The notes under the pieces are model-generated. The model saw nothing but the letters and a program-made list of their open reading frames with translations. It was not told the origin of the DNA and searched no databases. Positions 22,396-57,450 of a stretch of 64,000 nt of DNA are shown here, piece after piece (position 1 is the stretch's first letter; each line of letters starts with the position of its first letter). Position numbers and translations under genes: made by a program. The DNA lies in assembly GCA_025336725.1 (NCBI GenBank), contig GCA_025336725.1_3647.1; one strand, 5' to 3'. The stretch is from Escherichia coli. Lineage in GTDB: Bacteria; Pseudomonadota; Gammaproteobacteria; Enterobacterales; Enterobacteriaceae.

Positions 22396-23043
22396 CTACT
22401 TGTTAAAGAGAGAAAGTCGCGTAGGCTCCAGACGATACTGCTGGTCACCAGGGAACATAACACCTATAGAGGCTGTCCCTAGAATCCTACCTTCCTTTCC
22501 AGACTCCATTCTGAACCCTACCCATCCTGAACTCCTTGCAGCCTCGATGTTGTCGCTATACCCGAAAGTGGCAAGATCGTCAACACCAGCCCCAAACAGC
22601 AACTGAAGCTGACTTCTCGGAAGCCCTATAATTTCAGGAATATATGCACCAAAGTACACCATCTGCCCTACCTTAGGACCACTGCCGTACTCCATCGGCT
22701 TGCTTGTAGGAAAAGTCTTCATACCAGAAGTCCCTGCCGGATTAGGGTATGCCCCGTTTGTTGCTGTGCCTATCCACATTCTCCACTGAGGTGCCATCTG
22801 TCTGACAGTGAAAGATGTTGAAGACGTTTTGCGGCCTGCATCATCCGTAACTACAAACTTTATAGTGACATTACCAGGGGCTTTAAATGTTACCAATCCT
22901 GTGGTAGCATCCACTGTTGCAATGCTAGTATTACTACTTTCCCAAGTCTTTCTAATCCCTGGCACATTGGAAGGGGTAATAGAAGGTTCCTGCATCTGCA
23001 GTTTACCGCCCACAATCCCTATGCCGTTACCTGGATTATACAA
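22396..23043 (-). CDS. Ig-like (Big_2-type) domain protein; possibly C-terminal extension of upstream large protein
   Basis: ..WESSNTSIATVDATTGLVTFKAPGNVTIKFVV.. Big_2-like; ORF-track start is TTG, frame open from 14 nt below the upstream stop. Confidence 0.4.
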   Translation of the reverse strand: MYNPGNGIGIVGGKLQMQEPSITPSNVPGIRKTWESSNTSIATVDATTGLVTFKAPGNVTIKFVVTDDAGRKTSSTSFTVRQMAPQWRMWIGTATNGAYPNPAGTSGMKTFPTSKPMEYGSGPKVGQMVYFGAYIPEIIGLPRSQLQLLFGAGVDDLATFGYSDNIEAARSSGWVGFRMESGKEGRILGTASIGVMFPGDQQYRLEPTRLSLFNK

Positions 23044-23057
23044 CGCACCAACTTCAT

Positions 23058-26000
23058 CTACAATGTTACCTGCCTTGAGGTCAGCTTTAGAGAAGCTGGG
23101 GTGCCGTTATATGTGTGTGTCCCTGAGAAGGTTACATCTGCCTTGCCGTTGGAGATGCAAACCAAAGCATACTTCCTGTCAGGTAACTGTGCCCCAGTTT
23201 CTGGGTGAGTTTTACCCACCTGGAACACGCTCGGGTCAGTAGAGTCGTGGCTATCACTAACAGAGCTTGGACCCCCCATCAACTGTGACAAGCAATTCCT
23301 TACCCATGTCCAGTTATTGTCACTAGAGAAGTCTACAGTCAAATCAAACACAACCCACTCATTTGGCTTCCACACAGGTGTTGTGATCAACTTACCAACA
23401 CCCCCACCCTGAAGGGTAGGAGATTGTTCAGTGATCAAGGCAGAGTATGCCAGAGTTCCCAACTGCATAGTCTGGCTTGCTGTCCTCACTACCTTAGAAT
23501 CAGCATCTGTGAAGTTGTTGATGATCTGGAATGTGCCATAAGTGTTTTTACAGGTAATTCTGGCATTCAGTGTATCAATCTTTCTCACATCTGCCATGGC
23601 AGTGTTAGACACAGAGAAGTCAGAAGCTTTAGCTGAGTTTGCTGCAACAGCCGGATCAACGTTGAGGGTTGCGTTGAACTGGCAGGCAGGAGTAACCAGT
23701 AGCTTGTTATCACCTATTTGCTTCCATGAAACACTTTGAACAGGGAGATTCCATTTAATACCTGAGAAAACTTTAGCAACCCTTGGTCCCAAAGCTCCAG
23801 TTCTATTGTCTTTACAGCACATAGACATAGTGATCGTTGACGGAGTTGCTTGACCAAACAATTGCTGTGCTTTTGCAGAGGACATAGTGTAGAAATTGTC
23901 CTTAACAAACTCATCAGCCGCTAACGATCCGTCAGACCTCCACCATTGTACCTGGTACCCTGTCTTATCCCAGCCACCAACCTGCTTCAAGTCCTCCCAA
24001 GAGATTTCTAGATCCCCAGTGGTAGGATTGATTGCAGCAGTTCCTGGTGTACCGGATGACCACAATGGGATATCGAACCACGCAGGTTTAACAGATTGCA
24101 CTGCGTTAGGACCTATTGCAGCAGCAAGTTGCCGGCCCATCAATACGCGAGCATCTTTCACCAGACCCCACTCGATCATAGATCCAGAGTAACCTTCTTT
24201 CTTGTAGGCTGAGGATCCGTTCAGATGGATGAGTCTGCTGCAGTCGAAGCCATACGCCCCGCCACCGTTAGGGTCTGCAAAGTTAGTTATGATTCTATCC
24301 CTAATATTTTTCCATGCCCTACCTCCAATCTCGTAGCCATGATCATAGCATCTTTGCAACGTTGTCCAGCAAATGATTGCCATTCTTCTGCCGCCCGTGA
24401 ACCCGAAAGCGCCGTCATTCAGCTCTTTCCACAGGTAACAGTTGGTTGTCCACATAGCCCTGTGGATATTGAACCAGTTTATAGATTTAGCGGAGTTGTT
24501 CCACCGAGTTCCGGGTAATTCAGGCCACACTGCATTTACTAGCATGTCCTCTGTACCAGCATCTATCAGGAAGCCTCTTACCTTCTTGCCCATACCTGCC
24601 CTGTCTTTAGCAATCCAATTGCCAAACAGTCTCAGTTTTGGACCGTAGACAACATCTTCTGGATGCTCAAAAGAAACATACTTTAGATATACTGTAGGGT
24701 CACCATAGGTGCCATCACAAACAGCTTTGTGCATGTTCTCGCCAAGATCTAAACGAAGTCCTGTTACAACTTTAGACGTGTCGGTGAATTTGTCTGTTAA
24801 ATCAAATTCATACCACCACCATCCACCGCCAAGCATGAATTTCTTGCATCGCACAGTGTCTGTATCGGATATTCTCTTATCCCCAGCAAAAGGTGAATCA
24901 GCAAACTGATAGTGCAGAGCAGTCTCGAACAGATGTGTTGATGTGCCGTTTTCTGCAAGAACTTGCTTGCCTATTAAGTCACACTTAATGATCATCACAA
25001 CACGCTTGTACCCGTTTGTTACCGGAACTTGCATAGATATAGATGTTCCGTCCATGTTCGATCTTAGTACGGTCATGATGATATAGGGGTCAACAGCGTT
25101 GCCTAAAGTTTCAGGCCCTGGGATTATCTTGTACTTCTTGACCTGCCCCATAAATCTATCACTGGCGTAAGTTGCAGCCTCTAAGCAAGAGCCTCCACCA
25201 GGTAACTCACCAGGTCCCCAGAAAAATGCGCCATAACAGTTATAAAACCACTTGTTAGGGTCGTATTTGTTCTTGAAGGTCTGAACCTCGTTGGCCTGTT
25301 TTGTCAAGAAAACCTGCGTATCTGTGAAGATTGCAGGGTTTACTCTTGACTGTCGATTAGCATACCCGGTTTGGTTAAACCATTGATTGCAAGAGTAGTC
25401 CCTCATATAGTCATAATCAGAGTATTTGTTGTTTGCATCCTCGTTCCAACACATATTGAGGTTGGTGCCGCCCATGCACACAATATATTCTTCAACGTAT
25501 TTATCACTTCTGGTAGGAACACCTATGAACCATCTGTTAACAGGCTCATCCCAAGCGGTGCGCTCATCTTTAACGCAGATCGCAATCCAGTTATGTGTCC
25601 CTGTTTTCTTGCACACATCTCGCTTCATACCGTAGTAGAATTCTTTAGTATTTGGCTCAGGTGCGCTTATTAGGTAGCTCCACGCCTGGTCCGCATAGGT
25701 TCCATTGGTACGAGGGTCATGATCAAAAGCATACATGATGATCCTTTCCCCACCAAGATGTTCGCCAAGAGTAACTTTGATATTCACATCGCCGTAACCG
25801 TTGCGAACAACATCCATATTGTCAATAGAGATGCCTCTAGGGGTGTAGGCAATTTTCAGTGAGTTATCCTCACTAGTGCCACCAAGGGTGATCCCTATGT
25901 TGTTTGTTGTCCCGTCGGCATATCTTACTGTGGCTTCCCAGCGTATTCCGAAATATCCTACATCATGGCTGACAATTTTCAGTGTACGAGCACCAGAGTT

Positions 26001-26369
26001 AGGTTTTCCAGGATCAGGCCAAGGGTTTGGGTGTTCGTGAACAGTTAACGATGTCCCGTTTTGTTCATTGACCTGCAACATTTTACCACCTCTGCCGTTT
26101 GGGTTGAACTCCCATAAGGCCTGTGTCTGCACCAAGTTATCATAGGTATTTCGTCGCTGATTATAAATCTCTTGGGTAACATCATAAGTTACTGATCCAG
26201 CATCCATTCTATGGAGTCTGACCATATACGATGTATCCCCTTCTACTGCAGGCTGAGCCGCATTCAGTCCAAAGTATATAGTATCATTAACATGGAACTG
26301 TTTGTTTCTACCGACAGTATGCCATTTACCATCAGACTGGTAAGCCGGGACAATGGTGTTCCAGTTCAA
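23058..26369 (-). CDS. large tail fiber / tailspike-like protein with putative carbohydrate-active domain
   Basis: 1103 aa; ORF-track start is TTG without good RBS; frame open upstream into 3' end of ORF 26423..28033. Confidence 0.45.
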   Translation of the reverse strand: MNWNTIVPAYQSDGKWHTVGRNKQFHVNDTIYFGLNAAQPAVEGDTSYMVRLHRMDAGSVTYDVTQEIYNQRRNTYDNLVQTQALWEFNPNGRGGKMLQVNEQNGTSLTVHEHPNPWPDPGKPNSGARTLKIVSHDVGYFGIRWEATVRYADGTTNNIGITLGGTSEDNSLKIAYTPRGISIDNMDVVRNGYGDVNIKVTLGEHLGGERIIMYAFDHDPRTNGTYADQAWSYLISAPEPNTKEFYYGMKRDVCKKTGTHNWIAICVKDERTAWDEPVNRWFIGVPTRSDKYVEEYIVCMGGTNLNMCWNEDANNKYSDYDYMRDYSCNQWFNQTGYANRQSRVNPAIFTDTQVFLTKQANEVQTFKNKYDPNKWFYNCYGAFFWGPGELPGGGSCLEAATYASDRFMGQVKKYKIIPGPETLGNAVDPYIIMTVLRSNMDGTSISMQVPVTNGYKRVVMIIKCDLIGKQVLAENGTSTHLFETALHYQFADSPFAGDKRISDTDTVRCKKFMLGGGWWWYEFDLTDKFTDTSKVVTGLRLDLGENMHKAVCDGTYGDPTVYLKYVSFEHPEDVVYGPKLRLFGNWIAKDRAGMGKKVRGFLIDAGTEDMLVNAVWPELPGTRWNNSAKSINWFNIHRAMWTTNCYLWKELNDGAFGFTGGRRMAIICWTTLQRCYDHGYEIGGRAWKNIRDRIITNFADPNGGGAYGFDCSRLIHLNGSSAYKKEGYSGSMIEWGLVKDARVLMGRQLAAAIGPNAVQSVKPAWFDIPLWSSGTPGTAAINPTTGDLEISWEDLKQVGGWDKTGYQVQWWRSDGSLAADEFVKDNFYTMSSAKAQQLFGQATPSTITMSMCCKDNRTGALGPRVAKVFSGIKWNLPVQSVSWKQIGDNKLLVTPACQFNATLNVDPAVAANSAKASDFSVSNTAMADVRKIDTLNARITCKNTYGTFQIINNFTDADSKVVRTASQTMQLGTLAYSALITEQSPTLQGGGVGKLITTPVWKPNEWVVFDLTVDFSSDNNWTWVRNCLSQLMGGPSSVSDSHDSTDPSVFQVGKTHPETGAQLPDRKYALVCISNGKADVTFSGTHTYNGTPASLKLTSRQVTL

Positions 26370-26422
26370 AGTCCTTGTTGTATGAGTCCTGCCTGTGCCA
26401 TGTTTGTCATGATAGGTTATTT

Positions 26423-28033
26423 TTACGGATACAGCCCACGTCTGTTAACATTCCTGTTATACTGGGTGACAATAACTTCGTTGGCCCCTCCGTGGTTCCA
26501 GTTGGTAGAGAATTGGTAATTTGCATCTGTAACAACCGTGCCTGCAGCATTTACCAGTTCAATCTTGTCAATAATGAACGTAGCCCCCTCTGGCTGAGGC
26601 TTCAATTTCATCTTGACTGTGTCGCCAATGTAGATATTGCTAACGCTGCTAACACCGTTAACGTCGAAAATATCATCAACTCCCCAACTGTCTACTGGGA
26701 CATTTTTATACCAATTCTCAGGAACCTCTGTGAACCCTTGACTATTAAGTCTGCCGCCAAACAGGTTATTAGAACCTGCAAAACTTCCCCTTGGAATGCC
26801 TGACCACCAAAGTTTACCATTAACAACAGTAAAAGTCCCTAAGAAACCTTCTCTGTGAATGCCTTGGAAATAAACACTTTCTGTCCAGCTAACTGGGAGG
26901 CGTTGCTCAACGTATTTGGCTGTGGCAAGAGCTTGATAGTGGATAAAATTGGCCCTGGGGCTATTGTTTGCAGACTGTGCACCAATATCATTACATAAGT
27001 TGCGAGAGAATCCGCGATACTGCTTAGTACCATTATTGAAGAAAATGCCACTTGTTCCGTACCCACGAGCCATTATTACTTCATGGGTGTAGGTAATATT
27101 TAAGGAACGCCATGTATCATCTCCCCAGACATCTTGCCCGTAGAATACGTTAACAAGCTGCTGATCATTAGGCTTGTGCATCCTCTGCGTTGCAATTATC
27201 GCCCCGTTAGGACCACACATGAATCCTTTCCACTCCTCATCTGCAGGAATGCCTTTCAAATCGTTGCGAGTAATCTGAGCAGGGGGCCAAACAAGGTCGT
27301 TTCTACTGTTGTTTCTCAGAAAGTCGTATCCAGCAATCCAAAAACCTCTAGGCCCACCGAAAATAACAGAGTTGTCATGCACCTCGCAGTTGATACTTGG
27401 GTTTTTCCAAGGGCCTGTTTCAGGATTTTCTGATGTTTCACCAATCTTTACAGGAGTTGCATGCTGGTTCTTATCTACATGTAAAGATCCGTAGGTGTTG
27501 TTACCAGACCCATACAGGTTCAGTATGCCAGTACCTTCTGCCTCTGCAATAACCCAGACAGTGTTGTTAATACCTCCCATTACCTCAATAAGGCGCTCTG
27601 GGTGGGTGTCAAGGTGCAATCCTTTAACAATCTGTTCCGGAAGAGGTGTCCACTCGTTGACGCAAACATCGTTACCACCTGCCGCAGTGGATCCGATAAG
27701 ACCTGCAGTGCAGCCGATGTAGAAAAACTGGTTATCAAAAGTCCGGATCACAAACGCACGGTCTGCTCTCCACACATGATCAACATTCCAGGCTGTCTCG
27801 CTCGGGTAGTTTATAGGGCTACGATCCCCAGTGCGACACTCCCCGAACTTGTTATAGCCAGTAATATTAAGCTGACCATCGTCAAAAAGTATAGCTAAGC
27901 TATTTACATAAGCTACTGTAGTGCTTGTACCGTCACTGTTGTCTATTGGATATGACAGAACAGCAAGTTCCTTAACTCCACTCCTCTTATCGAGGAAATG
28001 ACGACCAAGTTTTAGCAAAGGGATTGGAAGCAT
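26423..28033 (-). CDS. tail fiber/tailspike-like protein, possibly N-terminal part of the 23058..26369 protein
   Basis: 536 aa; ATG with GGAGA RBS; Gly/Asn-rich beta-rich repeats. Confidence 0.45.
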   Translation of the reverse strand: MLPIPLLKLGRHFLDKRSGVKELAVLSYPIDNSDGTSTTVAYVNSLAILFDDGQLNITGYNKFGECRTGDRSPINYPSETAWNVDHVWRADRAFVIRTFDNQFFYIGCTAGLIGSTAAGGNDVCVNEWTPLPEQIVKGLHLDTHPERLIEVMGGINNTVWVIAEAEGTGILNLYGSGNNTYGSLHVDKNQHATPVKIGETSENPETGPWKNPSINCEVHDNSVIFGGPRGFWIAGYDFLRNNSRNDLVWPPAQITRNDLKGIPADEEWKGFMCGPNGAIIATQRMHKPNDQQLVNVFYGQDVWGDDTWRSLNITYTHEVIMARGYGTSGIFFNNGTKQYRGFSRNLCNDIGAQSANNSPRANFIHYQALATAKYVEQRLPVSWTESVYFQGIHREGFLGTFTVVNGKLWWSGIPRGSFAGSNNLFGGRLNSQGFTEVPENWYKNVPVDSWGVDDIFDVNGVSSVSNIYIGDTVKMKLKPQPEGATFIIDKIELVNAAGTVVTDANYQFSTNWNHGGANEVIVTQYNRNVNRRGLYP

Positions 28034-28047
28034 TGTGTTCTCCAGAT

Positions 28048-28072
28048 AAGAAAACCGCCCCGTCAGGAGCGG
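28048..28072 (-). terminator. rho-independent terminator
   Basis: Minus strand CCGCTCC-TGAC-GGGGCGG followed by TTTTCTT, downstream of ORF 28082..29827. Confidence 0.5.
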
Positions 28073-28081
28073 TCAGATATA

Positions 28082-30112: not shown

Positions 30113-30850
30113 TTAAGCATAAGATATCGTGATCCATTGACCGTTTACAAATTTTTGAATAGCACCAGTCCAATAGTCACCTTGATACGGGTGTTTATAG
30201 GCGTAATTGCCGGAGCACATTACATGCCCAGGGTATACTCTTGATTCTCTGTAGGTGGTTCTGAAACGGTTTGCTATCCTTACATCTTCAACACCCCTAC
30301 TAGGCATAGGGATAGTAAGGTTACCACTGCTATCTGCGCTACTACCATTTACCCTGCGGACCACGTTTCTCCCACCAACTGTTGCATATTGACCTCTGGC
30401 GGTTTTATCGTTACAATCTACTCTTCCCCCTATTTGAGCGCTGCCGCAGGATTGTTGTCCATTAACAGTGGCTCTAGGTATCGTTACCGCATTAGCATTT
30501 GCAGAGGAGCTTTTTGCATCATTGCATTCAAGATTCCCTTGGATAGCCAGTCTTGCACGGTTGGCAGTTATAGCATTGAGCTTCATAGCCGAAAACACAG
30601 GTTGCCCACCAGAAGGTTGAAATCTCCAACGGAAACCGTCTATTTGGTGAGAGGGATCATCAAGGTCTGTGCCGTCAGCACCACCTATGTTGTCCATAAT
30701 CCAGAAATCCATCATCGTCTTGTCTGGAGTTATGGTGGTGTATATCGCCGCATTGTCTGTTGACGCGGATGCGAACTCGATTCTTTGAAGACCTAAAGTT
30801 TGAGTCTGGATCATTGTGTCTCCAGCCTTGTCAACATAAAGGTCATCCAT
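30113..30850 (-). CDS. tail fiber 1, C-terminal part (P2 gpH / Mu S-like); frame-split from N-domain ORF
   Basis: C-terminus ..AIQKFVNGQWITISYA resembles P2 gpH end (..IQKYINGTWYNVAQV); paralogue of 32171..32956. Confidence 0.6.
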   Translation of the reverse strand: MDDLYVDKAGDTMIQTQTLGLQRIEFASASTDNAAIYTTITPDKTMMDFWIMDNIGGADGTDLDDPSHQIDGFRWRFQPSGGQPVFSAMKLNAITANRARLAIQGNLECNDAKSSSANANAVTIPRATVNGQQSCGSAQIGGRVDCNDKTARGQYATVGGRNVVRRVNGSSADSSGNLTIPMPSRGVEDVRIANRFRTTYRESRVYPGHVMCSGNYAYKHPYQGDYWTGAIQKFVNGQWITISYA

Positions 30851-31161
30851 TTCTTCAGGCGAGTATACATTGAGAACTTGACGTGCGGCAGCTTTGTCTG
30901 GAACGTCTGCTGATTATTAGTGACCCTTAAGAATCTATTATCCCATCCTGGGACAACATCTTCTGTTAAATGCTTCAACATTTGGTGAGAGAGCATGTGA
31001 AGTTCAAAGTTATCAACCTCACATGCCACTCTTTGTGTCATATCCCAACCTTTCAATCTCTCTTCTTTTTTTGGCTGAGACTTATTCAACTCTCCCGTAT
31101 TTTCAAGCACAACATCCTGATTGGCCCAAATATCAAGAGGGATAACTGGTTTAGTCATCAC
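30811..31161 (-). CDS. tail fiber 1, N-terminal domain ORF (different frame)
   Basis: AGGAG RBS + ATG; MMTKPVIPLDIWANQDVVL..KGWD.. homologous to N-domain ORF 33019..33213; last ~45 codons look out of frame. Confidence 0.5.
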   Translation of the reverse strand: MMTKPVIPLDIWANQDVVLENTGELNKSQPKKEERLKGWDMTQRVACEVDNFELHMLSHQMLKHLTEDVVPGWDNRFLRVTNNQQTFQTKLPHVKFSMYTRLKKWMTFMLTRLETQ

Positions 31162-31209
31162 GTTCTCCTGAGAAAATTCCTTAGACTATTTTAACACTTT
31201 AGAGAACAA

Positions 31210-31240
31210 ATGCAAGAACGGAGTCCTTTCCGTTCTGACC
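31210..31240 (-). terminator. terminator-like hairpin
   Basis: Minus strand GAACGG-AAAGGACT-CCGTTC followed by T-rich tract, upstream of fiber-1 RBS. Confidence 0.3.
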
Positions 31241-31368
31241 TTTGTTTACCTTTTACTATGCTCTACGAGCATGTGCAAAATCTTTTGTATAGTCGGCTCG
31301 ATGTTTCGAGACATCTGTCCTGACATCCTGCTTAAGGTCGTTAATATCGGCCTCTAGCTTGCTTAACT

Positions 31369-31560
31369 CTAAGTCTCGATAACGGAATCGTTATCTTTTT
31401 GTAACCATGCTATTTTCGACACTAAAATGAGGTCTTTCTCCAGCTCATCTAGCCTCTTGGAAATTCCTTTCATTTGCACACTGGTTGAAAGCCCATACAC
31501 AGATCGGGACAACAGTAGCTTCCATGCAGATACCGTATAAAGCCGCCAAATCCAACCCAC
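31369..31560 (-). CDS. small hypothetical protein; coiled-coil continuation in -1 frame to 31256
   Basis: GTG start 5 nt after strong GAGGAGG RBS; -1 frame continues ..LSKLEADINDLKQDVRTDVSKHRADYTKDF.. with no start codon. Confidence 0.4.
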   Translation of the reverse strand: MGWIWRLYTVSAWKLLLSRSVYGLSTSVQMKGISKRLDELEKDLILVSKIAWLQKDNDSVIET

Positions 31561-31571
31561 AACACCTCCTC

Positions 31572-32170: not shown

Positions 32171-32956
32171 CTATGCATAATTAACAGTGATCCATTGACC
32201 ATTTACAAGTTTTTGTAAAGGTCCTGCCCAGTAGGTTGAACCACGCATCTCTTTTTTGTCACCGAAATGCCAGCCTGTGACAACGTAGCCGTTGCGGATT
32301 GGAGATTCAGAAACGCCGTCCACAAGTCTTGCACCGATTCTGATGTCTTGCACACCTGTCTGCGGGATAGTGATCGTTACATCACCGTTACCGTTAGCCG
32401 TCACTCCGTTCACAGAGCGAACCACATTTCTGTTACCTACAACACAGTGCTGGCTTCTTACAACCATACTGTCACAACTTGCACCACCATTAACATATAC
32501 TGACCCAGCCGTCAACTGACTGGCAACATTACAGTTGGTGAATGTTGCTGTATTGCTGATAGTAAGGTTATTGCACCTCATGTTATCGACAACTTCAACA
32601 TTGCCTACCACTTTCAACAGCGCACGGTTAGCCGTGATCGCGTTAAGGTACATCAAAGTGAACTCTGGATTAATATCCGGCTGAGTTGGCTGGAATCTCC
32701 AACGAAACGCATCTACTGTAGATGTGCCACCATCATCAAACGCCCCAGTGTTATCACTTAACCCAAAGTCGAGAGTTGTCTTATCTGGACCGATAGTTGT
32801 CTCTATCCAAGCCTTATCTGTCTCGGCAGCTTTAAAGTTGATACGCTGCAAACCTAAGGGGCCTGTCATTGTATCGCCTGTAACTTTTACATACCTGGCG
32901 TCTGCCTCTTCCTTAGTAATAATCCCAAGGTTTCTACGGGCAACAGGAATGTTCAA
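32171..32956 (-). CDS. tail fiber 2, C-terminal part (P2 gpH / Mu S-like); frame-split from N-domain ORF
   Basis: C-terminus ..PLQKLVNGQWITVNYA; ORF-track start is TTG preceded by TGA TAA TAA; followed by Tfa gene. Confidence 0.6.
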   Translation of the reverse strand: MNIPVARRNLGIITKEEADARYVKVTGDTMTGPLGLQRINFKAAETDKAWIETTIGPDKTTLDFGLSDNTGAFDDGGTSTVDAFRWRFQPTQPDINPEFTLMYLNAITANRALLKVVGNVEVVDNMRCNNLTISNTATFTNCNVASQLTAGSVYVNGGASCDSMVVRSQHCVVGNRNVVRSVNGVTANGNGDVTITIPQTGVQDIRIGARLVDGVSESPIRNGYVVTGWHFGDKKEMRGSTYWAGPLQKLVNGQWITVNYA

Positions 32957-33018
32957 AAATCGCTCAGGTTATTATCACGTATTGTGATAACGGCCCTCTG
33001 TAAGGTGGGATCTGCTCG

Positions 33019-33213
33019 TCAGCAATATATTTTGCCCAAGTCCCGGAGCATATTGAAAATATAGTTAAGTTCTTCACATGACGGCTTTTGACCAAGATCC
33101 CAACCTTTTCTCCACAAATCATCAATCGGGCGTAGCCTGTTCTGTCTGTGGGTGTTAGGCAGAACCTGATCCTCCTCTGCCCAAATCTCTAATGGAAAAC
33201 TAGGTTTTGACAT
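33019..33213 (-). CDS. tail fiber 2, N-terminal domain ORF
   Basis: 64 aa; MSKPSFPLEIWAEEDQVL..KGWD.. homologous to 30811..31161. Confidence 0.5.
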   Translation of the reverse strand: MSKPSFPLEIWAEEDQVLPNTHRQNRLRPIDDLWRKGWDLGQKPSCEELNYIFNMLRDLGKIYC

Positions 33214-37591: not shown

Positions 37592-38144
37592 TTAGTCGTG
37601 AGACTCGTTCCAAGGTCCCTGGAAGCTTGAGTTAGAACGGCTTACCACAACAGTAGGACAGGATATTGCGACCCCTGTTACAGAAGACGTTGACCATGGT
37701 GTGTAGATTTCAACAACAATATCTATGGTTTGTTCACCAAGACCTGTTATCCCTACCGCACACATGCCGTTGTTGTCGTTTCCGTATTTCTTACCTGCAA
37801 GGATTTGATGTCCGGCTATCCAAACGTTGAGCTGGGGTTTCGGCAAGAGTAGCCATTCAGTTTAAAGAAGAATGTTACGTTCTTACCCTGACCTGAAACG
37901 TTATCTACGTATCTCCACCTCCAACGGCAAACCCTTTGCTTGGGAGTTATATACTGGAGCACAATCCCCGTAAGTCCCTGTGTGTGCAACAATTGCACCG
38001 AACTGGTTAGCACGGATAACAGAAGCTTCTACACGACCACGGAAGGTATCTCCGGTTGCATCTATGGTGCCTCTAAAGCTACCATTATTGGCATAAATAT
38101 CCCCACGGAAGGTACCACTAGTGGCGTTAACTGCCCCCGTGAAG
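37592..38144 (-). pseudogene. frameshifted 3' continuation of lambda J-like gene (receptor-binding region in three frames)
   Basis: After stop at 38145 a -1 frame encodes ..GNFTGAVNATSGTFRGDIYANNGSFRGTIDATGDTFRG.. (lambda J C-terminal-like), then two more frame changes (ORFs 37816..38013, 37592..37846). Confidence 0.5.
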
Positions 38145-41100: not shown

Positions 41101-41744
41101 ATGGTCTCGTCAGGACATTTAAGGTACGTTCTTAAATAGTCTAGGATCACCAAGGCAGCGTTATTGGTATACACCTCTTTACTGATACGAGGATCATAGC
41201 ATTTTTTACCAACCTTGACGAGTGTGACGTTTGGCAACCCAAAAGGAAACTTGTTAGGGTCAAACTTGAAGCTGGCACGTAGCCAACTGATCCCTCTACC
41301 TATCATGTCTGGTGACCAAGATGGGCAGTGTGTCCCCATGAAAGGATCAGCTGTTTTTCTGTCGTTATGTAGCTCCCACGATACCAAATCTCCATACGAG
41401 GAAATAGGATTACCATCGATAAGTATATCTTCTATACCTTCCAGAGGGTGATTGGCAAGAACAATAGCACAATGAAGAGTTTTGTCTCTATCCTGCTCCA
41501 AAAACGCAAGCAATCCGGATGTGCGTGTCTTACCATACACTACAGAGCAAGGTGCAGCAGAAGATCTGAGAAGCTTTTGTCTATCTTGCTGACTTCTGTA
41601 AGATTTGTTGCCCTCAAAAATCTTATCCAGAGTTCTGGTGGTAACAGTGTTCAGGCTGTCAGCCAGAGCTGCCTTGGATGCGTTCCAGTCATAACTTGAA
41701 GATCTTGCAGAAGCAACGATGTTATCAATCATTGCAATTGGCAT
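38145..41744 (-). CDS. central tail fiber / host specificity protein, lambda gpJ-like
   Basis: 1199 aa; ..APEAPVSVEVKQGYFAITLIPH.. and ..NKYVAGIQLGMEGSGGQVQSYFMVSANNFAVYNPGNG.. match lambda J; internal coiled-coil repeats. Confidence 0.75.
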   Translation of the reverse strand: MPIAMIDNIVASARSSSYDWNASKAALADSLNTVTTRTLDKIFEGNKSYRSQQDRQKLLRSSAAPCSVVYGKTRTSGLLAFLEQDRDKTLHCAIVLANHPLEGIEDILIDGNPISSYGDLVSWELHNDRKTADPFMGTHCPSWSPDMIGRGISWLRASFKFDPNKFPFGLPNVTLVKVGKKCYDPRISKEVYTNNAALVILDYLRTYLKCPDETINWESFKEAANICDEAVKNADGTSERRYTINGEFDMDEAPASIMAEMLKACGADLSYVAGKYGLLVGAYYGPATMTLSEDCVCGEVKIYPEASFDKRSNTITGRFTSPTKGYSETDFPSVFVPEWIEKDGERKIIDIDYRFVTSPYQAQRVSAIFLRRARAGRIIEVTCNMRGFKFKPGRYVTMNLPSIGIVGQEMRVLEWEFTKKGGVKVKLRQDAKEWNDATGQLPDSGNVDIPISPSGVAQPQNFRYSVLQAGEVTHGVLAWDNVGTYAQNIVQVRKNGEIVWTAQTVEQFVRVEGLTKGSYTATVVATSYKGGVSPEAYCEFNIQAPEAPVSVEVKQGYFAITLIPHSRDLASVSTQYDFWTSGMTRLPDTSDATVTSNATRMGVGSTWTSEGLQNDKVYYWYIRTTNAFGSSQFVECAARCYTSIEDLMPQIDAEFKKTETYKELMSTLDSSIEEVENRVTELNRYMDGRVDEAFDHMEGEFSRVDKLYAQLGDRVGIFIQETHDNFQDVNGTLTTLDQKLVATQNKFADDLSKESGKLTSLIQTTNKATTDLLNQKTEALDEKIVSTRGELEDALAQESSELNSLIVSTNKTTTDLLNRKTEALDNKLTATKGELTNNLNNESAKLSSLIETTNKSTTDLLNKKTDALDEKLVAAQGELTEQIGDVEKGYLAGDKSLEGKLNTQRSELDASILSTNQATVDLLNRTSQTLDQKISQTNATVSKNYTTLDGKINTTKSDLNTLISTTNKATTDLLNQKTAALSEQLTSAKGQITTNTNNITGLDNKLTQAKKDLSANISETNQATVDLINGTASAIRQELAVAKQEIIDDVGDVSEIRAAVATTSKAVTDLEGKVNAQWGTKIQVDSAGNKYVAGIQLGMEGSGGQVQSYFMVSANNFAVYNPGNGTATLAFAIKNNQAFLKDAFIENGTISSAKIAQEISSNNYDGNGSTINTVGILTRTGTPQFMDVWVKGNAQRQFW
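38640..39500 (-). repeat. tandem ~130-nt coding repeats inside J-like gene
   Basis: About 6 repeats of ..SxLxSLIxTTNKxTTDLLNxKTxALDxKLxxxxGELT..; boundaries approximate. Confidence 0.5.
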
Positions 41745-43312: not shown

Positions 43313-43373
43313 TGTGCCTCCAGGTTAAACAATCATGATAGTTATTTTACCAGATTTTGAGTTAATACGCAAT

Positions 43374-43403
43374 ACAAACAAAAAGCCCCCGCCGAAGCGA
43401 GGG
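43374..43403 (-). terminator. rho-independent terminator
   Basis: Minus strand GCCCTCGC-TTCG-GCGGGGGC followed by TTTTTGTTTG, just downstream of fiber gene stop. Confidence 0.6.
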
Positions 43404-43411
43404 CAAAACAG

Positions 43412-47221: not shown

Positions 47222-47256
47222 TCTTTCTCCTGAAAGGGGGCAAACAGCCCCCTATG

Positions 47257-49854: not shown

Positions 49855-49855
49855 C

Positions 49856-50524
49856 TTAGATAGCTCCTGCGATAATCAGTGCTCCGTACCAAGTTAACCC
49901 GTTGTCGTAGGTTTCCAACTTGAAAATGTCTGTTGCACCAGCTGTAAATGTCAGGATAGGATCTCTTCCGTATGCCCATTTAACATTATCAGGCCAATAG
50001 ACTTTGTTACCGCCAGAGGTCTGAGTAATGCATACGGTTATAGTTCTCGCCACACCTTCAAGACCTTCTGTTTGATTTTCAAAAGAGATTGTGGTGTTTG
50101 AAGTTAGTCGAACTTTAAAAGTGTCAGCAACTTCAAGATCCATATCAAGCTGACCACCAATAGATCCGTAATCAACTATTCTGCCAGAAGAAGTTGCAGC
50201 AAGCTCACCAAAAACAGACCAGGCTTTTGCAGACACACCCCCAGCACCCTCTACAGTGGAGTCTGGGAGGATTATTTTAGGATAATCCCCGTTCCACGTG
50301 TAGTAGCGCTTAGTTTCTGGGTCATAAGCAAAGTCCTTCTTGCTCTTAAGATAACCACCCTCTGTGAAATAGACTATCTTAGTAATGCTAAGATCGTTGA
50401 CAACATCGTCAATCTTAGCCTTTCTTGTCCCATCAGTCTGGTTGACAACCAAGAAGTCATCACTCAGGACTGTTTCTGCATCTTCAAGATCTGGAATTGG
50501 TATTGTAGGATAAGCTACAGCCAT
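49856..50524 (-). CDS. tail fiber anchor-domain protein
   Basis: 222 aa; N-terminus ..DDFLVVNQTDGTRKAKIDDVV..FTEGGYL..DFAY.. homologous to N-terminus of the 1269-aa fiber. Confidence 0.45.
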   Translation of the reverse strand: MAVAYPTIPIPDLEDAETVLSDDFLVVNQTDGTRKAKIDDVVNDLSITKIVYFTEGGYLKSKKDFAYDPETKRYYTWNGDYPKIILPDSTVEGAGGVSAKAWSVFGELAATSSGRIVDYGSIGGQLDMDLEVADTFKVRLTSNTTISFENQTEGLEGVARTITVCITQTSGGNKVYWPDNVKWAYGRDPILTFTAGATDIFKLETYDNGLTWYGALIIAGAI

Positions 50525-50533
50525 GATTTCTCC

Positions 50534-51118
50534 TTAGTTAACATCAATAGCACGACCAGACTGGTTGGCAATAGCCTCATCATTGGAGGTAGCAATAACA
50601 CCAGAGTATTCGCGCTCATCTGGAGCAAGCGTCCAGGTATTGCGGTTAATGGTTTGTTCTGCCTCAGTCATCAGCAGATCTTTATCCTGAGTCAACAGAG
50701 AGCCTACAGGGATCGGGTTTTCCATCTCAGGACCAGCATACTGGTTCCACCATGTGGCATCTCCGGTTCTAGGCAATCTGAAGTTGATCAGGTAGTACAG
50801 TTTATTAGCCCACTTAATCCAACCCTCATCATCACAGAGAGAGGTTGTCCCAGAATCAGGCTGTGGGTAGGTGAACTGATCAAGACCTACGAAAGCCAGC
50901 CTTACAATCTCGTTCTCTTTGGTAACAACCTCAAAGAACGCTTGGTATGTTCTAGATCTTCGATCCATGGTAGACTGGAAGTTTATGATGTTTAGCACAT
51001 CCGGCTCTTGTCTTGCCACTTCCATAATCTTGTTATCAAGAACAGTCTTCATGACCTTCTTGCTGAGAAAGTCCATATAAGGGAGCAAACAGCTCGTCAG
51101 CAGCCAGCTCCCTTCCAC
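50534..51118 (-). CDS. baseplate wedge protein gp25/W-like, C-terminal part (frame-split)
   Basis: ORF-track GTG start without RBS; ..KIMEVARQEPDVLNIINF.. downstream of N-part in another frame. Confidence 0.4.
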   Translation of the reverse strand: MEGSWLLTSCLLPYMDFLSKKVMKTVLDNKIMEVARQEPDVLNIINFQSTMDRRSRTYQAFFEVVTKENEIVRLAFVGLDQFTYPQPDSGTTSLCDDEGWIKWANKLYYLINFRLPRTGDATWWNQYAGPEMENPIPVGSLLTQDKDLLMTEAEQTINRNTWTLAPDEREYSGVIATSNDEAIANQSGRAIDVN

Positions 51119-51246
51119 GTATTAAACCTCATCCACAAGCGCTGGCGCAGACTTACCTGGTTTGAATCTATCAACTCAAGACCTTTGTCTATCGCCAAAT
51201 CGCCTGTCTGCGGGTCCATCAATATGTCACTATAAAGCGTAGCCAT
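51097..51246 (-). CDS. baseplate wedge protein gp25/W-like, N-terminal part (49 aa ORF)
   Basis: ATG at 51246 with AGGG RBS right after gpV-like stop; MATLYSDILMDPQTGDLAIDKGLELIDSNQVSLRQRLWMRFNTWKG matches gp25/W N-terminal pattern. Confidence 0.4.
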   Translation of the reverse strand: MATLYSDILMDPQTGDLAIDKGLELIDSNQVSLRQRLWMRFNTWKGAGC

Positions 51247-53332: not shown

Positions 53333-53878
53333 TTATTTTCCGTTAACTTTGTTGTAGTTCCCCTGCTCAGATGGGACTATGGTGGAAGGTCTTCCATATT
53401 CCTGATAATACCAATCTGCAGCCGATTGGGTAACACCGTTTTCATCTGTCCACATCATGGATTTGTATGGCTGCCACTCTTCTGCAGCATTTGTGGACGC
53501 GGTGTCTGCAAATGCCCCTGTGTCTCTCTTGTTACCTACGTTACTACCATTCTTGCAATCGTTGACAGCCCCTTTTTGCTGGGTCTTGCCGACCTTCTTG
53601 GGGTTGCTGTATACAGTTGCATTAACAACCTTGTTCAAGTAGAATGTGCGGAATTCTGTAAGTTCCACATCAAACACCATTGCAGCACCCTCACCAACAG
53701 ACTTGTTGGCAGAAAGACTGGTTATAATGTAGTTTTCAAGGAGTCTCTCTTCAGTAACTAAAGAAACCAACTGCCGCTTATTAATGATCTCGTCAAAGTT
53801 TCCAGTGCAGCGCCGCAAGTCGCATAGACGCTGCAGGGTTTTTAGAGTCAGTATTCCTGTCAATGTAGTTTTGCTCAT
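53333..53878 (-). CDS. hypothetical tail protein
   Basis: 181 aa; ATG at 53878 directly after in-frame TAA; overlaps upstream ORF by 86 nt. Confidence 0.4.
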   Translation of the reverse strand: MSKTTLTGILTLKTLQRLCDLRRCTGNFDEIINKRQLVSLVTEERLLENYIITSLSANKSVGEGAAMVFDVELTEFRTFYLNKVVNATVYSNPKKVGKTQQKGAVNDCKNGSNVGNKRDTGAFADTASTNAAEEWQPYKSMMWTDENGVTQSAADWYYQEYGRPSTIVPSEQGNYNKVNGK

Positions 53879-54218
53879 AGATTATATGTGGTGATGTATT
53901 TACCCTACCAGTAAAAGAAAATACACCATCTTTAATTACAGCGTGGTCTGACAGGGTAGATTTATCTTCCACCGCAAACCCAGTCTTATCAACAGAATGT
54001 TTGAAAGAATAGTTCTCAACCTGGTCGAAGATAATGGCAAGATCGTTAGTAAAGTTTTTACCCTTCATCTCCGTATTGCGACCACCATAGTTAAGACCGC
54101 TGACAAACATAGTATACTTTACATCGCTTTCAGTTTGCTGCTCTGCCTTTTCAGCCTTTGGAGATTTAACCTCTTGAGGCTTGTACAGGTCTTTTTCATC
54201 AACTATATTGCTTGGCAT
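53793..54218 (-). CDS. hypothetical tail protein
   Basis: 141 aa ORF; 3' end overlaps next gene in a different frame. Confidence 0.4.
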   Translation of the reverse strand: MPSNIVDEKDLYKPQEVKSPKAEKAEQQTESDVKYTMFVSGLNYGGRNTEMKGKNFTNDLAIIFDQVENYSFKHSVDKTGFAVEDKSTLSDHAVIKDGVFSFTGRVNTSPHIIYEQNYIDRNTDSKNPAASMRLAALHWKL

Positions 54219-54282
54219 AACCTCTCCAGGACACTCCTATACCATCTAGATATTGTATCATAAACAGCTACGTTTTTACAAC

Positions 54283-54312
54283 ACCGATAAAATAAAGGGG
54301 GCCGGAGCCCCC
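54283..54312 (-). terminator. rho-independent terminator
   Basis: Minus strand GGGGGC-TCCG-GCCCCC followed by TTATTTTAT. Confidence 0.5.
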
Positions 54313-54323
54313 TGCACAGTTTA

Positions 54324-54464
54324 TTACCAAAGGTCGGTAGACATGAAGTTGATATCTTTATTGTTCTCCCACTCAAGTTTTGCATCAAATATTTTGTTAA
54401 ACTCGCCCTCATCTATTGAAATCGTGATTTTCCCATCACTGATCTCTAAAGGTAGCATTTCCAT
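54324..54464 (-). CDS. small hypothetical ORF (46 aa)
   Basis: MEMLPLEISDGKITISIDEGEF.., below ORF-track cutoff; sits just upstream of terminator; weak RBS. Confidence 0.25.
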   Translation of the reverse strand: MEMLPLEISDGKITISIDEGEFNKIFDAKLEWENNKDINFMSTDLW

Positions 54465-54637
54465 AGTTCTTAATTGAGAAGCAAAACCGAGGCCACCCCG
54501 GCAACGGAAAATCCCGCCCCATTAAGGTGTCCAAAGGATTAACAAACCCGTTACCTCAAATGAAAGTATCTTTGCGAATCATATCGCTGATAGCATCCAG
54601 CTGCTGATTTCTTTCACTTAGTGGGTTGTAACGGTCA

Positions 54638-56662
54638 TTAAATAATTCCGGCGCTTAGTATTATACCGATAATGCCCAGCTTACCGAGCAGACCAACTTT
54701 GCCACCAGGTGTCTTGAGGCCACCCCCACCTTTTCCTGCCGGAGCTCCACCACCAGATCCTTCTGTAGTAGCGGCACCAGCTGCTGCTGCTGCTCCAGCT
54801 GCACCCCTTAGAGAGTTAAGGAATTTAAAGGTTTTTACAAGCATGGATGCCATGACAAAACCTTTTGTTAGGGCGTTGACTACCAGCATGATGGCAGCAG
54901 CAAACCCTGCCCATTTAGCATAGCTAAAGGTGTCATGAAGCTCTTCAGAATATTCCTTCGTCTTAGCTGTTATGAATCCCCATTTAATCCCCCATTCAAG
55001 GAAAAACATGCGGATCTTGACTATAGTGTTGTTTAGTTCACCAACTACCCAGTTAAGGCCTCTCACAAACCCGCTAACAAAATCACCAGAGGCATCCACA
55101 CAAATTACGGGGAGTCTCGCCAGTGCGAATCAGTGTATAATGAACTCTGTTAATTCATCGCTTAACGGGTGAACAGCTTCTGACAGGATAATTCGATGAA
55201 GGTTTTCAGTCTGTTTTCTGCCAATGCGTTAGACTTCTGCATTCTTTCATAACCGGCTGCAGATGCCTCGTTCATATACTTAGCCACATACTTCATGATC
55301 TTGGCTGTCTTAACCTCACCTTTCTTCATCATGTCCATGAACTGATCCATGGACAGTTCAGAAAAGACCAAAAGCCTCTTTGGTGGCTTTGATAAAGGTT
55401 ATGCGGGCAATGCTTCAGCAAGTTGTTGCTTCAGTTCTTCGGACATTACCTGTCCTTTCCCGAGCAATTTGCTGGATTGCCATGATACCACGCTGGTATT
55501 TTACCTCATCGGCACCATAAGCAGCAGCATACTGTGAGTATGCAGAAAACAGCTCATGCACTTCCTGATTTGTCATCTGGTTTTTGGCGTTTACCGACAT
55601 CTGGGCGTAACCTTGAAGACCAGATTTGAGATCAAAACCAAGACGCATAGCCTCTTGCTGGACAAACGCAACCTCACTGTTGGCTTTGTTTGGATCTCCA
55701 GTAACAGCAGTAAGAGCAGCACTTGCCCCCTCCATCATGTGACCAGATCTGTTCACAGCAGTAAATCCAGAGAAAGCCGTATACGCAGCTGTTGCATTAA
55801 TAACAGACCTACGTAAGTCTCTCATGGCATCACCAAGTGTAAGCGTTTGGCTGGTGGCGCTTTTAAATCCAGACTGCAGAGCTGACAGGTGGGCGTTAAA
55901 GGTTGACTTTTTCATCTCCCCGCGAGCAAACCTGGACTCTAACTCTGAGTATCCAGGCAAGCTTCCACGGAATCCGGCTCCATACTTGGCAGAAAGTCTT
56001 ATCGCAGAGTTGTAGAGGTGGGTTCTCCTTGCCTCACGATCCGACATAAGCCTATTATCCATGCCAGCTTTACTGTCCCTTCTTAGCTGTCTATGATAAC
56101 GATTCATAGCAGCTGTCTGAGCTTTCACAAGGTTAGGGTCGGAAGCCACACCACCCATATTAGGGTTACCAGGGATATACTTGAAAGATTTGGCATTAGC
56201 CAAAACTCTTGCCTTAGGTGCCTTATAACCGCCGTAAGACACTGGTGTAGATTTGGCAGCCTTTTTGGCCTCTTTAGCTTGCTGCTGGTAGAACTTACGC
56301 ATCCTAGCCATTTCTGGATTTTTAGCGGTAAGATTGCCTACAGCTTGTTTACGTCTCGCGTTCTCCCTACGTTCTATTGCGGCCCTTACTGCAGCCTCTT
56401 TCTTGGCTTGTGCTACGCTCTCCCTGTGCAGTTTAGCATTTGCCTGAGATTGCTGTCTGGCAACCCGCTGCATTGTTTGCTGGGTTTTAACAGCCACTGC
56501 CTGCCATCTACTCATCGGGTTGGCTGAGTTAAAATCCTCGCCAAGTTTCCTGAACTCCCTCCCAATACTGCGAATTTTCTCTACAGCTTTTTTGTAGGAG
56601 GAGTTCTCTATCTCAAAGCCAATCTTGTTGACTGTTGTGGCAACTATTTTGTTTGTAGCCAT
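54638..56662 (-). pseudogene. tail tape measure protein gene, apparently disrupted
   Basis: Three consecutive same-strand ORFs in three frames (55415..56662, 55162..55371, 54638..55099) downstream of G/GT chaperone; the two distal ORFs lack RBS and ATG; additional in-frame TAA. Confidence 0.5.
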
Positions 56663-56674
56663 GCTTTCCTCATA

Positions 56675-56711
56675 ATAAAAAGGGCCAGATCCCAGAAAAG
56701 GAATCCGGCCC
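56675..56711 (-). terminator. hairpin plus T-run between chaperone and tape measure genes (terminator or attenuator)
   Basis: Minus strand GGGCCGGAT-(12-nt loop)-ATCTGGCCC followed by TTTTTAT. Confidence 0.35.
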
Positions 56712-56716
56712 TTAGA

Positions 56717-57450
56717 TTATCCTCTCCTGCGCTTAGCTTTCGCAGCAGCTGCGGCAGCCTTCTGCTCCCGCTCCATTTCCCTGTTTTGGACGGTATCTAG
56801 GAATTCTTCGATATCAAGATACTCACAGAGCTTCAGGAAATACGCCATATCTGCAAGATTTAGCGATTCAAAATTTTCCCCTTTGAAATTCTTGAGCACC
56901 CTGCACCAAAGAAAGTCGAACCAGTTAAGTGAACTGTTCTTGGCTGCCCACTCACTGGCCCTCACAACAACCTTGCTTATTCCTGCTCTTCCGGAGTCTG
57001 ATCCAGATTGTTCACCTGCTGGATCATACCCATCTGCTGTAACATCTCCAGAAGGCTTCCTAAACCGTCTTGTGTGAAAAAACAGCCGTAGTTAACCTCC
57101 AGAACCTTACCTGCCAGCTTAATCATCTCCAGCAGATGCCCTGCAAACACAACATCAGGGTTAAGCTTATCCACACCATCCACGGTAATATCTTCGAACA
57201 AGATTTTAAATAACTCTTCAATAGAGTTATCATCAAGTTCCTGGAACAGGTAAGCTAGGGCTGTAGGAAGGACCTCTGCCATATTCTGACCGCCTGAGAG
57301 AATAGATCCACCGATAGCACCTAGCGGGACAGCCACAATCTTACCGATTTTAGGCATGTTTTTCATTGCTTTCATCGGCCCCCAGTGAGTGATCACAAAG
57401 TTGTGCCCTGCTAAATCAATCTCTGTTGTAGGTCTAAAGTTTATAGCCAT
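56717..57450 (-). CDS. tail assembly chaperone frameshift product (gpGT-like) via -1 ribosomal frameshift
   Basis: -1 frame is open from near the slippery site through ORF 56717..56965 (82 aa, no own RBS). Confidence 0.55.
56977..57450 (-). CDS. tail assembly chaperone (gpG-like)
   Basis: 157 aa upstream of tape measure; slippery heptamer near 3' end. Confidence 0.65.
   Translation of the reverse strand: MAINFRPTTEIDLAGHNFVITHWGPMKAMKNMPKIGKIVAVPLGAIGGSILSGGQNMAEVLPTALAYLFQELDDNSIEELFKILFEDITVDGVDKLNPDVVFAGHLLEMIKLAGKVLEVNYGCFFTQDGLGSLLEMLQQMGMIQQVNNLDQTPEEQE
57076..57082 (-). other. -1 slippery heptamer T TTT TTC
   Basis: Minus strand ..GGC TGT TTT TTC ACA..; forward strand A6 run 57077-57082. 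Confidence 0.55.

Follow-up and report, generated by a model that had tools for sequence, protein, structure and literature searches.

Clustered private frame disruptions in the tail gene block of a Vequintavirus genome probably reflect a localised sequence or assembly artefact

Does this genome really carry a set of broken tail genes, and what could have broken them, or is the sequence itself faulty where the reading frames change? In the window, that is the whole 64-kb stretch of DNA that was analysed, the region 22396-57450 contains late genes whose coding sequence passes from one frame to another. Taken at face value, the record would point to tail genes that are pseudogenised or recoded in an E. 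coli phage of therapeutic type, and its annotation would list about 25 ORF fragments where relatives have 10 genes. An earlier note on this DNA had counted at least six split late genes and offered three candidate explanations: homopolymer sequencing error, a decaying defective prophage, and slippage-based on/off switching of receptor-binding proteins. Judged by ORF tiling the region looked intact, with fragments that tile neatly, a reading that comparison with annotated relatives overturned and ruled out.

Identity of the genome

Nucleotide comparison with published genomes places the window among the Vequintaviruses, lytic E. coli myoviruses of the rV5-like type. More than 100 published genomes are collinear with it across the whole 64 kb, with 90-97% identity; when it was searched in segments, 100 or more records spanned at least 80% of each query segment, again at 90-97% identity. 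Of the 70 proteins of phage EmilHeitz, 66 map to the window in order. Gene order and content are those of the structural module of EmilHeitz (Bas49, MZ501062), ECP32, HMD-6 and rV5 (DQ832317), with lateral and short tail fibres, a Dit-like tube initiator, baseplate hub, spike, wedge, tape measure and chaperone pair in common. Its biology is ordinary: the tail and multi-fibre module is standard for a Vequintavirus, and the conserved chaperone frameshift site is the usual one. A megablast search against plasmids gave as its sole match a relative at 95.7% identity, and exact-protein look-ups for one fragment ORF and two intact ORFs returned no match.

These data bear directly on the proposal of a decaying prophage whose late genes are becoming pseudogenes. 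The presence of many broken genes in one contiguous block would fit such decay. However, the window is collinear with virulent phages over its full 64 kb and has no host flank, no integrase is found among the annotated homologues, no megablast match was obtained in 5,426 complete E. coli genomes, and neither large deletions nor IS insertions are present. Moreover, the gene fragments match functional homologues at 93-100% identity and bear the signatures of purifying selection, so that integration, relaxed selection and deletions, the marks of prophage decay, are all missing from this locus. We consider this explanation extremely improbable.

Broken genes and their lesions

Split genes were detected by tblastn of the 70 EmilHeitz proteins against the window. 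Eight genes within 22396-57450 are spread over two or three frames, and two further broken genes, the HNH endonuclease and a small early gene, lie beyond this region. The ten genes are:

19606..20171, plus strand: small early gene, homologue of bas49_0048 (188 aa)
22396..28033, minus strand: Ig-like/intimin-domain lateral tail fibre, in relatives one 5634-nt ORF (1877 aa)
30113..31161, minus strand: short tail fibre, homologue of EmilHeitz bas49_0038 (347 aa), in pieces 30113-30850 and 30811-31161
31249..31563, minus strand: small 104-aa gene, phrog_5345, the small coiled-coil gene of the earlier note
32171..33213, minus strand: short tail fibre, homologue of bas49_0035 (346 aa; phrog_4465)
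37592..41744, minus strand: J-like lateral tail fibre (Ig_J, Ig_J_second, Phage_Tail_Tip), with FnIII, split in its C-terminus
50534..51246, minus strand: baseplate wedge-like protein, 238 aa, phrog_120, called gp25/W-like in the earlier note
53333..54218, minus strand: Dit-like tail tube initiator, 294 aa, split by two lesions (-1 at 53791, +2 at 53814)
54261..56662, minus strand: tape measure protein (TMP_3; 775-779 aa in relatives) with its 3' intergenic terminator region
57527..59149, minus strand: HNH homing endonuclease, 541 aa in HMD-6, phrog_559/3339

The Ig-like fibre occupies three minus-strand ORFs in three frames (22396-23043, 23058-26369 and 26423-28033) and carries private lesions of -1 at 22427, -3 and -1 at 23083-23098, and -1 at 26429; when its private indels are reverted, a 5637-nt ORF with no internal stop is obtained. 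In the bas49_0038 homologue the break comes from the private loss of a single nucleotide at 30911, in the non-repeat context CTGCT|GATT, and after repair the gene is stop-free over 1044 nt. In the other short fibre the lesions form a patch: one base is lost at 32958, and one is gained at 32985, at 33000 and at 33045. Six private insertions (+1 at 37841, 37852, 37940, 38164 and 38195, and +2 at 38240) distribute the C-terminal ~180 codons of the J-like fibre over three frames; repair restores a stop-free ORF of 4146 nt, the length of the ECP32 allele. The wedge-like gene has a 25-nt patch at 51085-51110 (-2, -2, +1, -1) and becomes a stop-free 717 nt once repaired, while the tube initiator becomes a stop-free 885 nt, its flanking fragments having 98.5% and 100% amino-acid identity to EmilHeitz.

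The remaining genes are more disturbed or lie at the margins. The 104-aa gene is heavily scrambled, with seven private indels (31292-31557) and three internal stops, even when compared with its best-matching allele class, that of bov10K2 (90%). The tape measure holds the largest patch, with about 15 private indels and micro-scrambles in 54261-55466, and falls into four to five ORF fragments in three frames (five HSPs in tblastn); non-coding DNA beside it, at 54261-54313, is also lesioned. The HNH endonuclease gene, which lies as a variable insert between the genes for tail tube and chaperones, is interrupted by two lesions (+1 at 58853, -1 at 58804), and the 16 out-of-frame codons contain three stops. 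In the early region the final 36 codons of the bas49_0048 homologue, the sole broken gene outside the tail block, are put out of frame by a private insertion of 2 nt at 20053.

The eight genes of 22396-57450 are single ORFs in EmilHeitz, ECP32, ECP26, YP-6, HMD-6 and bov10K2, barring isolated splits of those records; the Ig-like fibre, for example, is also split in the YP-6 and ECP26 records, at other positions. The same holds for all ten genes among the Vequintavirus relatives, each of them encoded as one ORF, whereas in the window they are interrupted by patches of private indels. This answers the check that had been suggested in the earlier note, namely whether the homologues are single ORFs. 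Over the same span the window has 10 split genes and the control genomes 0-2. Counted in the same alignment columns of 22396-59200, private small indels whose length is not a multiple of three number 40 in the window and 2-4 in each of four control genomes, while the early region is normal in this respect (4 in the window, 3-7 in the controls).

The distribution follows position and not function. Lesions range from 20053 to 58853, a positional block that includes a lesion-free run of 12.8 kb (38240-51085), and no lesion falls in the late genes for tail tube, sheath and neck at 59.2-64 kb; patch-level clustering is modestly significant only (p about 0.02). The splitting of multiple late genes was thus correctly perceived in the earlier note, although undercounted. 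Its picture of intact early genes is confirmed with the one exception at 20053, and its contrast between late and early genes has to be redrawn, given the clean late genes after 59.2 kb and the lesions that reach 20053 and 58853.

Signature of the lesions

The lesions fall into about 12 short patches, from 1 nt to about 1.2 kb, in which indels of 1-2 nt are mixed with substitutions irrespective of codon position. Their positions, in two groups of six, are:

Patches 1-6: 20053; 22427; 23083-23098; 26429; 30911; 31183-31557
Patches 7-12: 32958-33045; 37841-38240; 51085-51110; 53791-53814; 54261-55466; 58804-58853

Among the 41 private frame-breaking indels, 26 (63%) are not changes in a mononucleotide run and only eight lie in runs of at least four; with 20 insertions and 21 deletions, the two types are balanced. 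The breaks had been placed at short homopolymers in the earlier note, an assignment that does not survive this count. In particular, the coding strand reads CTC at 38162-38164, where AAA had been reported; AAA stands at 38172-38174, and the real lesion is the private 1-nt insertion at 38164. Likewise, the T5 noted in a fibre gene, the bas49_0035 homologue, arises by loss of a non-T base and not by a change of run length. A search of the patches for repeats, tandem repeats and paralogous matches found none, and inspection by eye only revealed no common sequence or methylation motif at the lesions.

Substitutions reach 68.5/kb within 25 nt of a private indel and 23.0/kb elsewhere, a difference to be read with the caution that some mismatches beside gaps may be alignment artefacts. 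Third positions take 41-44% of the substitutions near lesions and 68% elsewhere (p = 2e-7). The transition/transversion ratio does not differ significantly (1.83 near lesions, 2.24 elsewhere; p = 0.35). Outside the patches 24 of 26 private substitutions in the tube initiator and 62 of 85 in the Ig-like fibre fall at third positions; for unbroken late genes and broken genes outside patches the share is 83-100%. Judging from these substitution patterns, the broken genes are under strong purifying selection outside the patches. In agreement with this, the fragments retain 93-100% amino-acid identity to their homologues and every protein is covered end to end. Reverting the indels restores five full-length ORFs (tube initiator, wedge, one short fibre, Ig-like fibre and J-like fibre), and in the other broken genes the stop codons left after indel repair all lie within the scrambled patches.

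Absence of the lesions from other genomes

Neither the six aligned isolate genomes nor two independent metagenome contigs carry the lesions, and among about 119 records the best match to the patch regions was 93.8% or 96.1%. Exact patterns spanning the lesions were not found in IMG/VR, in 241 M metagenome records or in 16.6 M genome contigs. The lesions are private with respect to distant relatives also: a Vequintavirinae lineage at ~70% identity keeps the reading register, so that alignment to it requires 0 gaps for the intact allele and 7 for the window patch.

We evaluated whether the patches could derive from other sequences. Natural divergent alleles do not account for them, because a better class exists for the 104-aa gene (90%) and its seven indels persist against it, and because no better allele was found for the tape measure or J-like fibre patches. 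Conversion tracts from the divergent Vequintavirinae lineage are rejected since the patches align worse to that lineage than the intact alleles do, and misassembly or gene conversion driven by repeats or paralogues is rejected since neither was found at the patches. Part of the patch in the 104-aa gene is natural allelic divergence, a point against the artefact reading.

Programmed frameshifting and phase variation

One locus in the region does carry the features of a programmed frameshift:

56717..57450, minus strand: tail assembly chaperone pair, ORFs 56977-57450 and 56717-56965

A slippery heptamer T_TTT_TTC lies in the zero frame at 57082-57076, and from 57091 onwards the -1 frame is open. 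The pair itself is unbroken, and all five genomes share exactly this site. As in the -1 frameshift of the lambda G/GT type, a zero-frame heptamer and an overlapping -1 ORF are found upstream of the tape measure. We regard this heptamer as the only candidate programmed frameshift in the region, since the hallmarks of the lambda type are limited to 56717-57450 and none occurs in the ten broken genes.

It could be proposed that the frame changes in the broken genes are functional too, either as ribosomal frameshifts or other recoding, or as phase variation by slippage that switches receptor-binding proteins. Several affected genes are indeed fibres, eight of the 41 indels lie in runs of four or more, and a -1 frameshift signal is present nearby in the chaperone gene. 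However, the relatives encode every affected protein as a single ORF, 26 of the 41 indels lie in non-repeat contexts, and several genes would require 3 to 15 successive shifts of both signs through stretches that contain stops. Essential genes that have no part in receptor binding (tape measure, Dit-like, wedge) are hit as hard as the fibres, which also speaks against the on/off switching suggested earlier, and relatives show no tract-length polymorphism at the lesion sites. A literature search on recoding of Vequintavirus structural genes found no report, its frameshift matches being host-gene mutations only. With no tandem repeats, invariant relatives and non-receptor genes among those affected, the pattern of a phase-variable contingency locus is lacking, and that of programmed frameshifting is confined to the chaperone pair. 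Functional frame changes thus appear extremely improbable, and the comparative data effectively refute them.

Origin of the lesions

The lesions exist, they are private, patchy and codon-blind, and they are sufficient for all the ORF breaks. As to what produced them, a localised low-quality consensus, from sequencing or assembly, is the likely answer on the sequence evidence. About 12 stretches of poor consensus would be embedded in an otherwise normal and functional Vequintavirus genome; in each, bases would have been lost, added or miscalled, breaking the local gene or intergenic region, and the gains and losses that often lie tens of nucleotides apart would correspond to local mis-registration of a read or of the consensus. 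Codon-blind noise within the patches, with purifying selection elsewhere, and the five genes restored cleanly by reversion are what such an origin would leave. Candidate causes are low-coverage or single-pass stretches, an unpolished long-read consensus, a reference-guided consensus or co-assembly of a mixed lysate. Uniform per-base error is excluded by the clean early genes and the clean late genes at 59.2-64 kb, and a cause of the localised low quality therefore has to be assumed; the search for repeats, paralogues and a common motif at the patches turned up none, which weighs against the artefact reading. Sequence error, the first of the earlier proposals, is thus the best supported in its general form, although not as homopolymer slippage.

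In contractile-tailed phages the virion cannot do without the tape measure, the Dit-like tube initiator and the baseplate wedge. With all of these genes broken and with no prophage state, a lytic phage could not be propagated, which favours an artefact. The main alternative is that the mutations are real and belong to a non-viable, helper-dependent ("cheater" or defective) Vequintavirus, which would obtain its virion proteins in trans from an intact co-infecting phage, for instance in a mixed or high-multiplicity lysate or in an environmental population. Its replication genes would remain under selection and its tail genes would be free to break. This would account for the spared replication and early genes, the transition/transversion ratio around the lesions does not clearly point to error, and the one or two split genes sometimes seen in deposited relatives, such as the Ig-like fibre of YP-6 and ECP26, suggest that loss of dispensable fibres may be real. 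However, the tail module shows no relaxed selection, its late genes at 59.2-64 kb and the run 38240-51085 are unaffected, intergenic DNA is lesioned too, and none of the lesions occurs in any second genome. The mutations are also packed, with 15 indels within 1.2 kb in the tape measure and four within 25 nt in the wedge, while neutral decay would scatter them singly. We consider helper dependence unlikely. Genuine lesions in the fuller sense of a defective genome, natural or laboratory-arisen, with ten broken genes (eight of tail, baseplate and fibre), packaged by a helper as a structural-gene cheater and with patches made by localised error-prone repair, seem to us very unlikely.

Because these breaks are private, occur in patches and can be reverted, re-sequencing or polishing of the genome should come before any conclusion on its host range, its fibre repertoire or recoding. 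If the disruptions are artefactual, as we think probable, they resemble frameshift artefacts of other deposited phages in being private breaks of conserved essential genes that can be reverted and that come with local substitution noise. They differ from the classic 454, Ion Torrent and Nanopore pattern, being confined to a 39-kb block and mostly non-homopolymer. They also differ in density: other records of the genus have 0-2 splits per 64 kb, and the window exceeds them 5-10 times.

Identity of the window

When four segments spanning the window were searched by megablast, 126-143 phage records were matched, nearly all Escherichia Vequintavirus (rV5-like) myoviruses of ~137 kb. In more than 100 of them, collinear sequence of 90-97% identity covers at least 80% of every segment; none of the phage matches is identical to the window. 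The sequence was not found in IMG/VR, in 5,426 complete E. coli genomes or in an exact-protein index. Vequintaviruses are virulent, which agrees with the zero matches in complete host genomes. In the plasmid collection the sole match was a 95.7% relative, the 137.6-kb "plasmid" CP057073.1 (79546-87091) of an E. coli assembly from cattle faeces; it is a Vequintavirus genome, apparently a lytic phage assembled as an extrachromosomal replicon of the bacterial isolate. On the minus strand, replication and rII genes occupy 1.8-15.5 kb, and the module for fibres, baseplate, tail and neck occupies 22.4-64 kb; the small early genes at 15.6-22.4 kb are on the plus strand.

Across the whole module, 16-18 unannotated GenBank records titled "Campylobacter phage" (MG0656xx) are ~93% identical, suggesting mislabelled or contaminant genomes.

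Genes broken across reading frames

Plain ORF tiling, with its long minus-strand ORFs and small gaps, suggested an intact region, but this was misleading: the pieces of broken genes line up tidily by chance. The comparison with related phages proposed in the earlier note overturned this impression, since several ORFs of the window correspond to one long ORF in annotated relatives. Using tblastn with 70 proteins of the relative EmilHeitz (Bas49), we found eight genes within 22396-57450 spread across two or three frames and two more outside this interval, so that the splitting described in that note is real and stronger than it had stated; its gene identifications were confirmed by Pfam and PHROGs.

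Broken genes of the window
within 22396-57450, tape measure protein (TMP_3)
within 22396-57450, Dit-like tube initiator (Dit_like)
within 22396-57450, baseplate wedge-like protein (phrog_120)
within 22396-57450, J-like fibre, C-terminus (Ig_J with Phage_Tail_Tip)
within 22396-57450, two short tail fibres, both broken (tblastn)
within 22396-57450, 104-aa small gene (tblastn)
within 22396-57450, 1877-aa Ig-like fibre (tblastn)
57527-59149, minus strand, HNH homing endonuclease (+1 at 58853, -1 at 58804, three stops between)
20053, small early gene (+2)

Four relatives that cover the full 64 kb were aligned with the window, and the changes private to each genome were counted.

Private small indels of a length not divisible by three
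1-22395: window 4, each control 3-7
22396-59200: window 40, each control 2-4
59201-64000: window 1, each control 0

By the same split-gene test, 10 genes are split in the window versus 0, 0, 2 and 2 in the four controls. The opposition of broken late genes and intact early genes proposed earlier holds only in part: the early region is largely clean, its private indels being intergenic or within the last two codons of a gene, but an early gene is hit at 20053, and the late tail tube, sheath and neck genes (59.2-64 kb) are clean. The lesions (private frame-breaking indels) therefore delimit a block by position (20053-58853), not by gene function. If the ~12 patches in which they cluster are treated as independent events, their restriction to 61% of the window is modestly significant (p ~0.02).

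The bas49_0073 homologue has a private 1-nt deletion at 4730, two codons short of its stop, that lengthens it by 13 codons (173 vs 160 aa), so that it runs into the beginning of the Dcm methyltransferase gene; this may be a further lesion or harmless natural variation. Among the relatives, YP-6 (22773-28410) and ECP26 (24150-29786) each have the Ig-like fibre gene in two parts, with break positions different from those of the window, and this giant fibre may undergo recurrent loss in culture or recurrent mis-sequencing. The DNA helicase of ECP26 is also split (7812-9180).

Anatomy and privacy of the lesions

Lesions by extent
single sites: 22427, 26429, 30911
clusters of 25-90 nt: 51085-51110, 53791-53814, 32958-33045, 58804-58853
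longer patch: 31183-31557
longer patch: 37841-38240
longer patch: 54261-55466 (~15 indels)

Every lesion is absent from EmilHeitz, YP-6, ECP32, ECP26, HMD-6 and bov10K2, and two metagenome-derived IMG/VR contigs depart from the window at the lesion positions. Among ~119 records, no match exceeds 93.8% in the tape measure patch or 96.1% in the J-like fibre tail, all being 3 and 7 nt shorter there, respectively; the pattern covering both tube-initiator lesions does not occur in metagenome or genome collections. A Vequintavirinae lineage of ~70% identity agrees in register with the intact alleles and not with the window. One natural allele class fits the 104-aa gene better (90%), and the apparent scramble of this gene is therefore partly genuine divergence, but seven indels persist against that class.

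Gains and losses are frequently paired a few tens of nucleotides apart, with small scrambled blocks of bases in between, and the tape measure patch extends partly into an intergenic terminator region. The 41 private frame-breaking indels of the block are balanced (20 insertions, 21 deletions). Breaks had been placed at short homopolymers, but 26 of the 41 are not mononucleotide-run changes; four are in runs of 2, three in runs of 3, and only eight in runs of at least 4. At 38162-38164, where AAA had been read, the coding strand has CTC, and the "T5" of the second short fibre arises by G/C loss beside an A4 run, not by a change of run length.

Reversal of the window-private small indels alone restored full-length genes with no stops:

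tube initiator, 885 nt
wedge protein, 717 nt
one short fibre, 1044 nt
Ig-like fibre, 5637 nt
J-like fibre, 4146 nt (the ECP32 allele length)

Scrambled patches contain all of the few stops left in the tape measure gene, the remaining short fibre and the 104-aa gene. Programmed recoding or phase variation is highly improbable: relatives encode single ORFs, most lesion contexts are non-repetitive, several genes would require many shifts of both signs, and stops are present in the out-of-frame stretches.

Private substitutions reach 68.5/kb within 25 nt of a private indel versus 23.0/kb elsewhere, and the third-codon-position share is 41-44% near these indels versus 68% elsewhere (p = 2e-7); the transition/transversion ratio (1.83 versus 2.24) does not differ significantly. 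Away from the patches, 24/26 private substitutions in the tube initiator and 62/85 in the Ig-like fibre are at third positions, and fragments of broken genes are 93-100% identical to relatives. Patches aside, the broken genes look fully selected, a substitution pattern indicative of purifying selection. A decaying prophage hardly deserves credence, since no decay is seen, the window is collinear with lytic phages and it is absent from host genomes.

Origin of the disruptions

The lesions are private, patchy, blind to codon position, present also in intergenic DNA, and enough to explain every break. We consider it likely that they have a technical cause and reflect locally poor consensus quality in this assembly. 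Contractile tails cannot be assembled without tape measure, Dit-like tube initiator and baseplate wedge proteins; given also the virulent lifestyle, propagation of a phage with this genotype would therefore not have been possible. If the genome were truly defective and helper-dependent, the sparing of replication genes would be accounted for, but selection should then be relaxed and single mutations scattered over the tail module; neither is seen, and we regard this reading as unlikely. Among the explanations offered earlier, sequence error survives, although not as homopolymer error, while prophage decay and slippage switching do not. A uniform error rate is excluded, since the early genes and 59.2-64 kb are clean; tests for repeats, for paralogues and for conversion from a divergent lineage gave no explanation of lesion placement. 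The frame disruptions are best attributed to the record and not to the phage, and are therefore of low biological interest.

Probable chaperone frameshift site and accessory variation

In the intact tail assembly chaperone pair (56717-57450, minus strand), the canonical -1 slippery heptamer T_TTT_TTC lies in the zero frame at 57082-57076, and the -1 frame is open from 57091 and runs into the 82-aa downstream gene; the heptamer site is identical in all five aligned genomes. It is the only frame change here with the hallmarks of programmed frameshifting, and is probably the G/GT-type frameshift of the genus.

The HNH gene (541 aa; phrog_559, phrog_3339), which has the tail tube gene on one side and the chaperone genes on the other, is carried by HMD-6 and absent from EmilHeitz, YP-6, ECP26 and ECP32; megablast coverage suggests that JEP1 and some of the "Campylobacter phage" records have it too. 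This mobile insert is polymorphic within the tail operon. The N6-adenine methyltransferase and homing endonuclease genes of EmilHeitz have no tblastn match in the window (~5913-5975 and ~3907-3920); these are presence/absence polymorphisms of replication-module accessory genes. The lateral tail fibre at 43412-47221 (minus strand) is intact (1269 aa, with Tail_spike_N and a Peptidase_S74 chaperone domain) and is a different, shorter allele than the 1478-aa form of EmilHeitz, ECP26 and HMD-6, without the small downstream gene (bas49_0027 homologue). ECP32 has the same 3810-nt form, and the allele difference is natural receptor-binding-module swapping.
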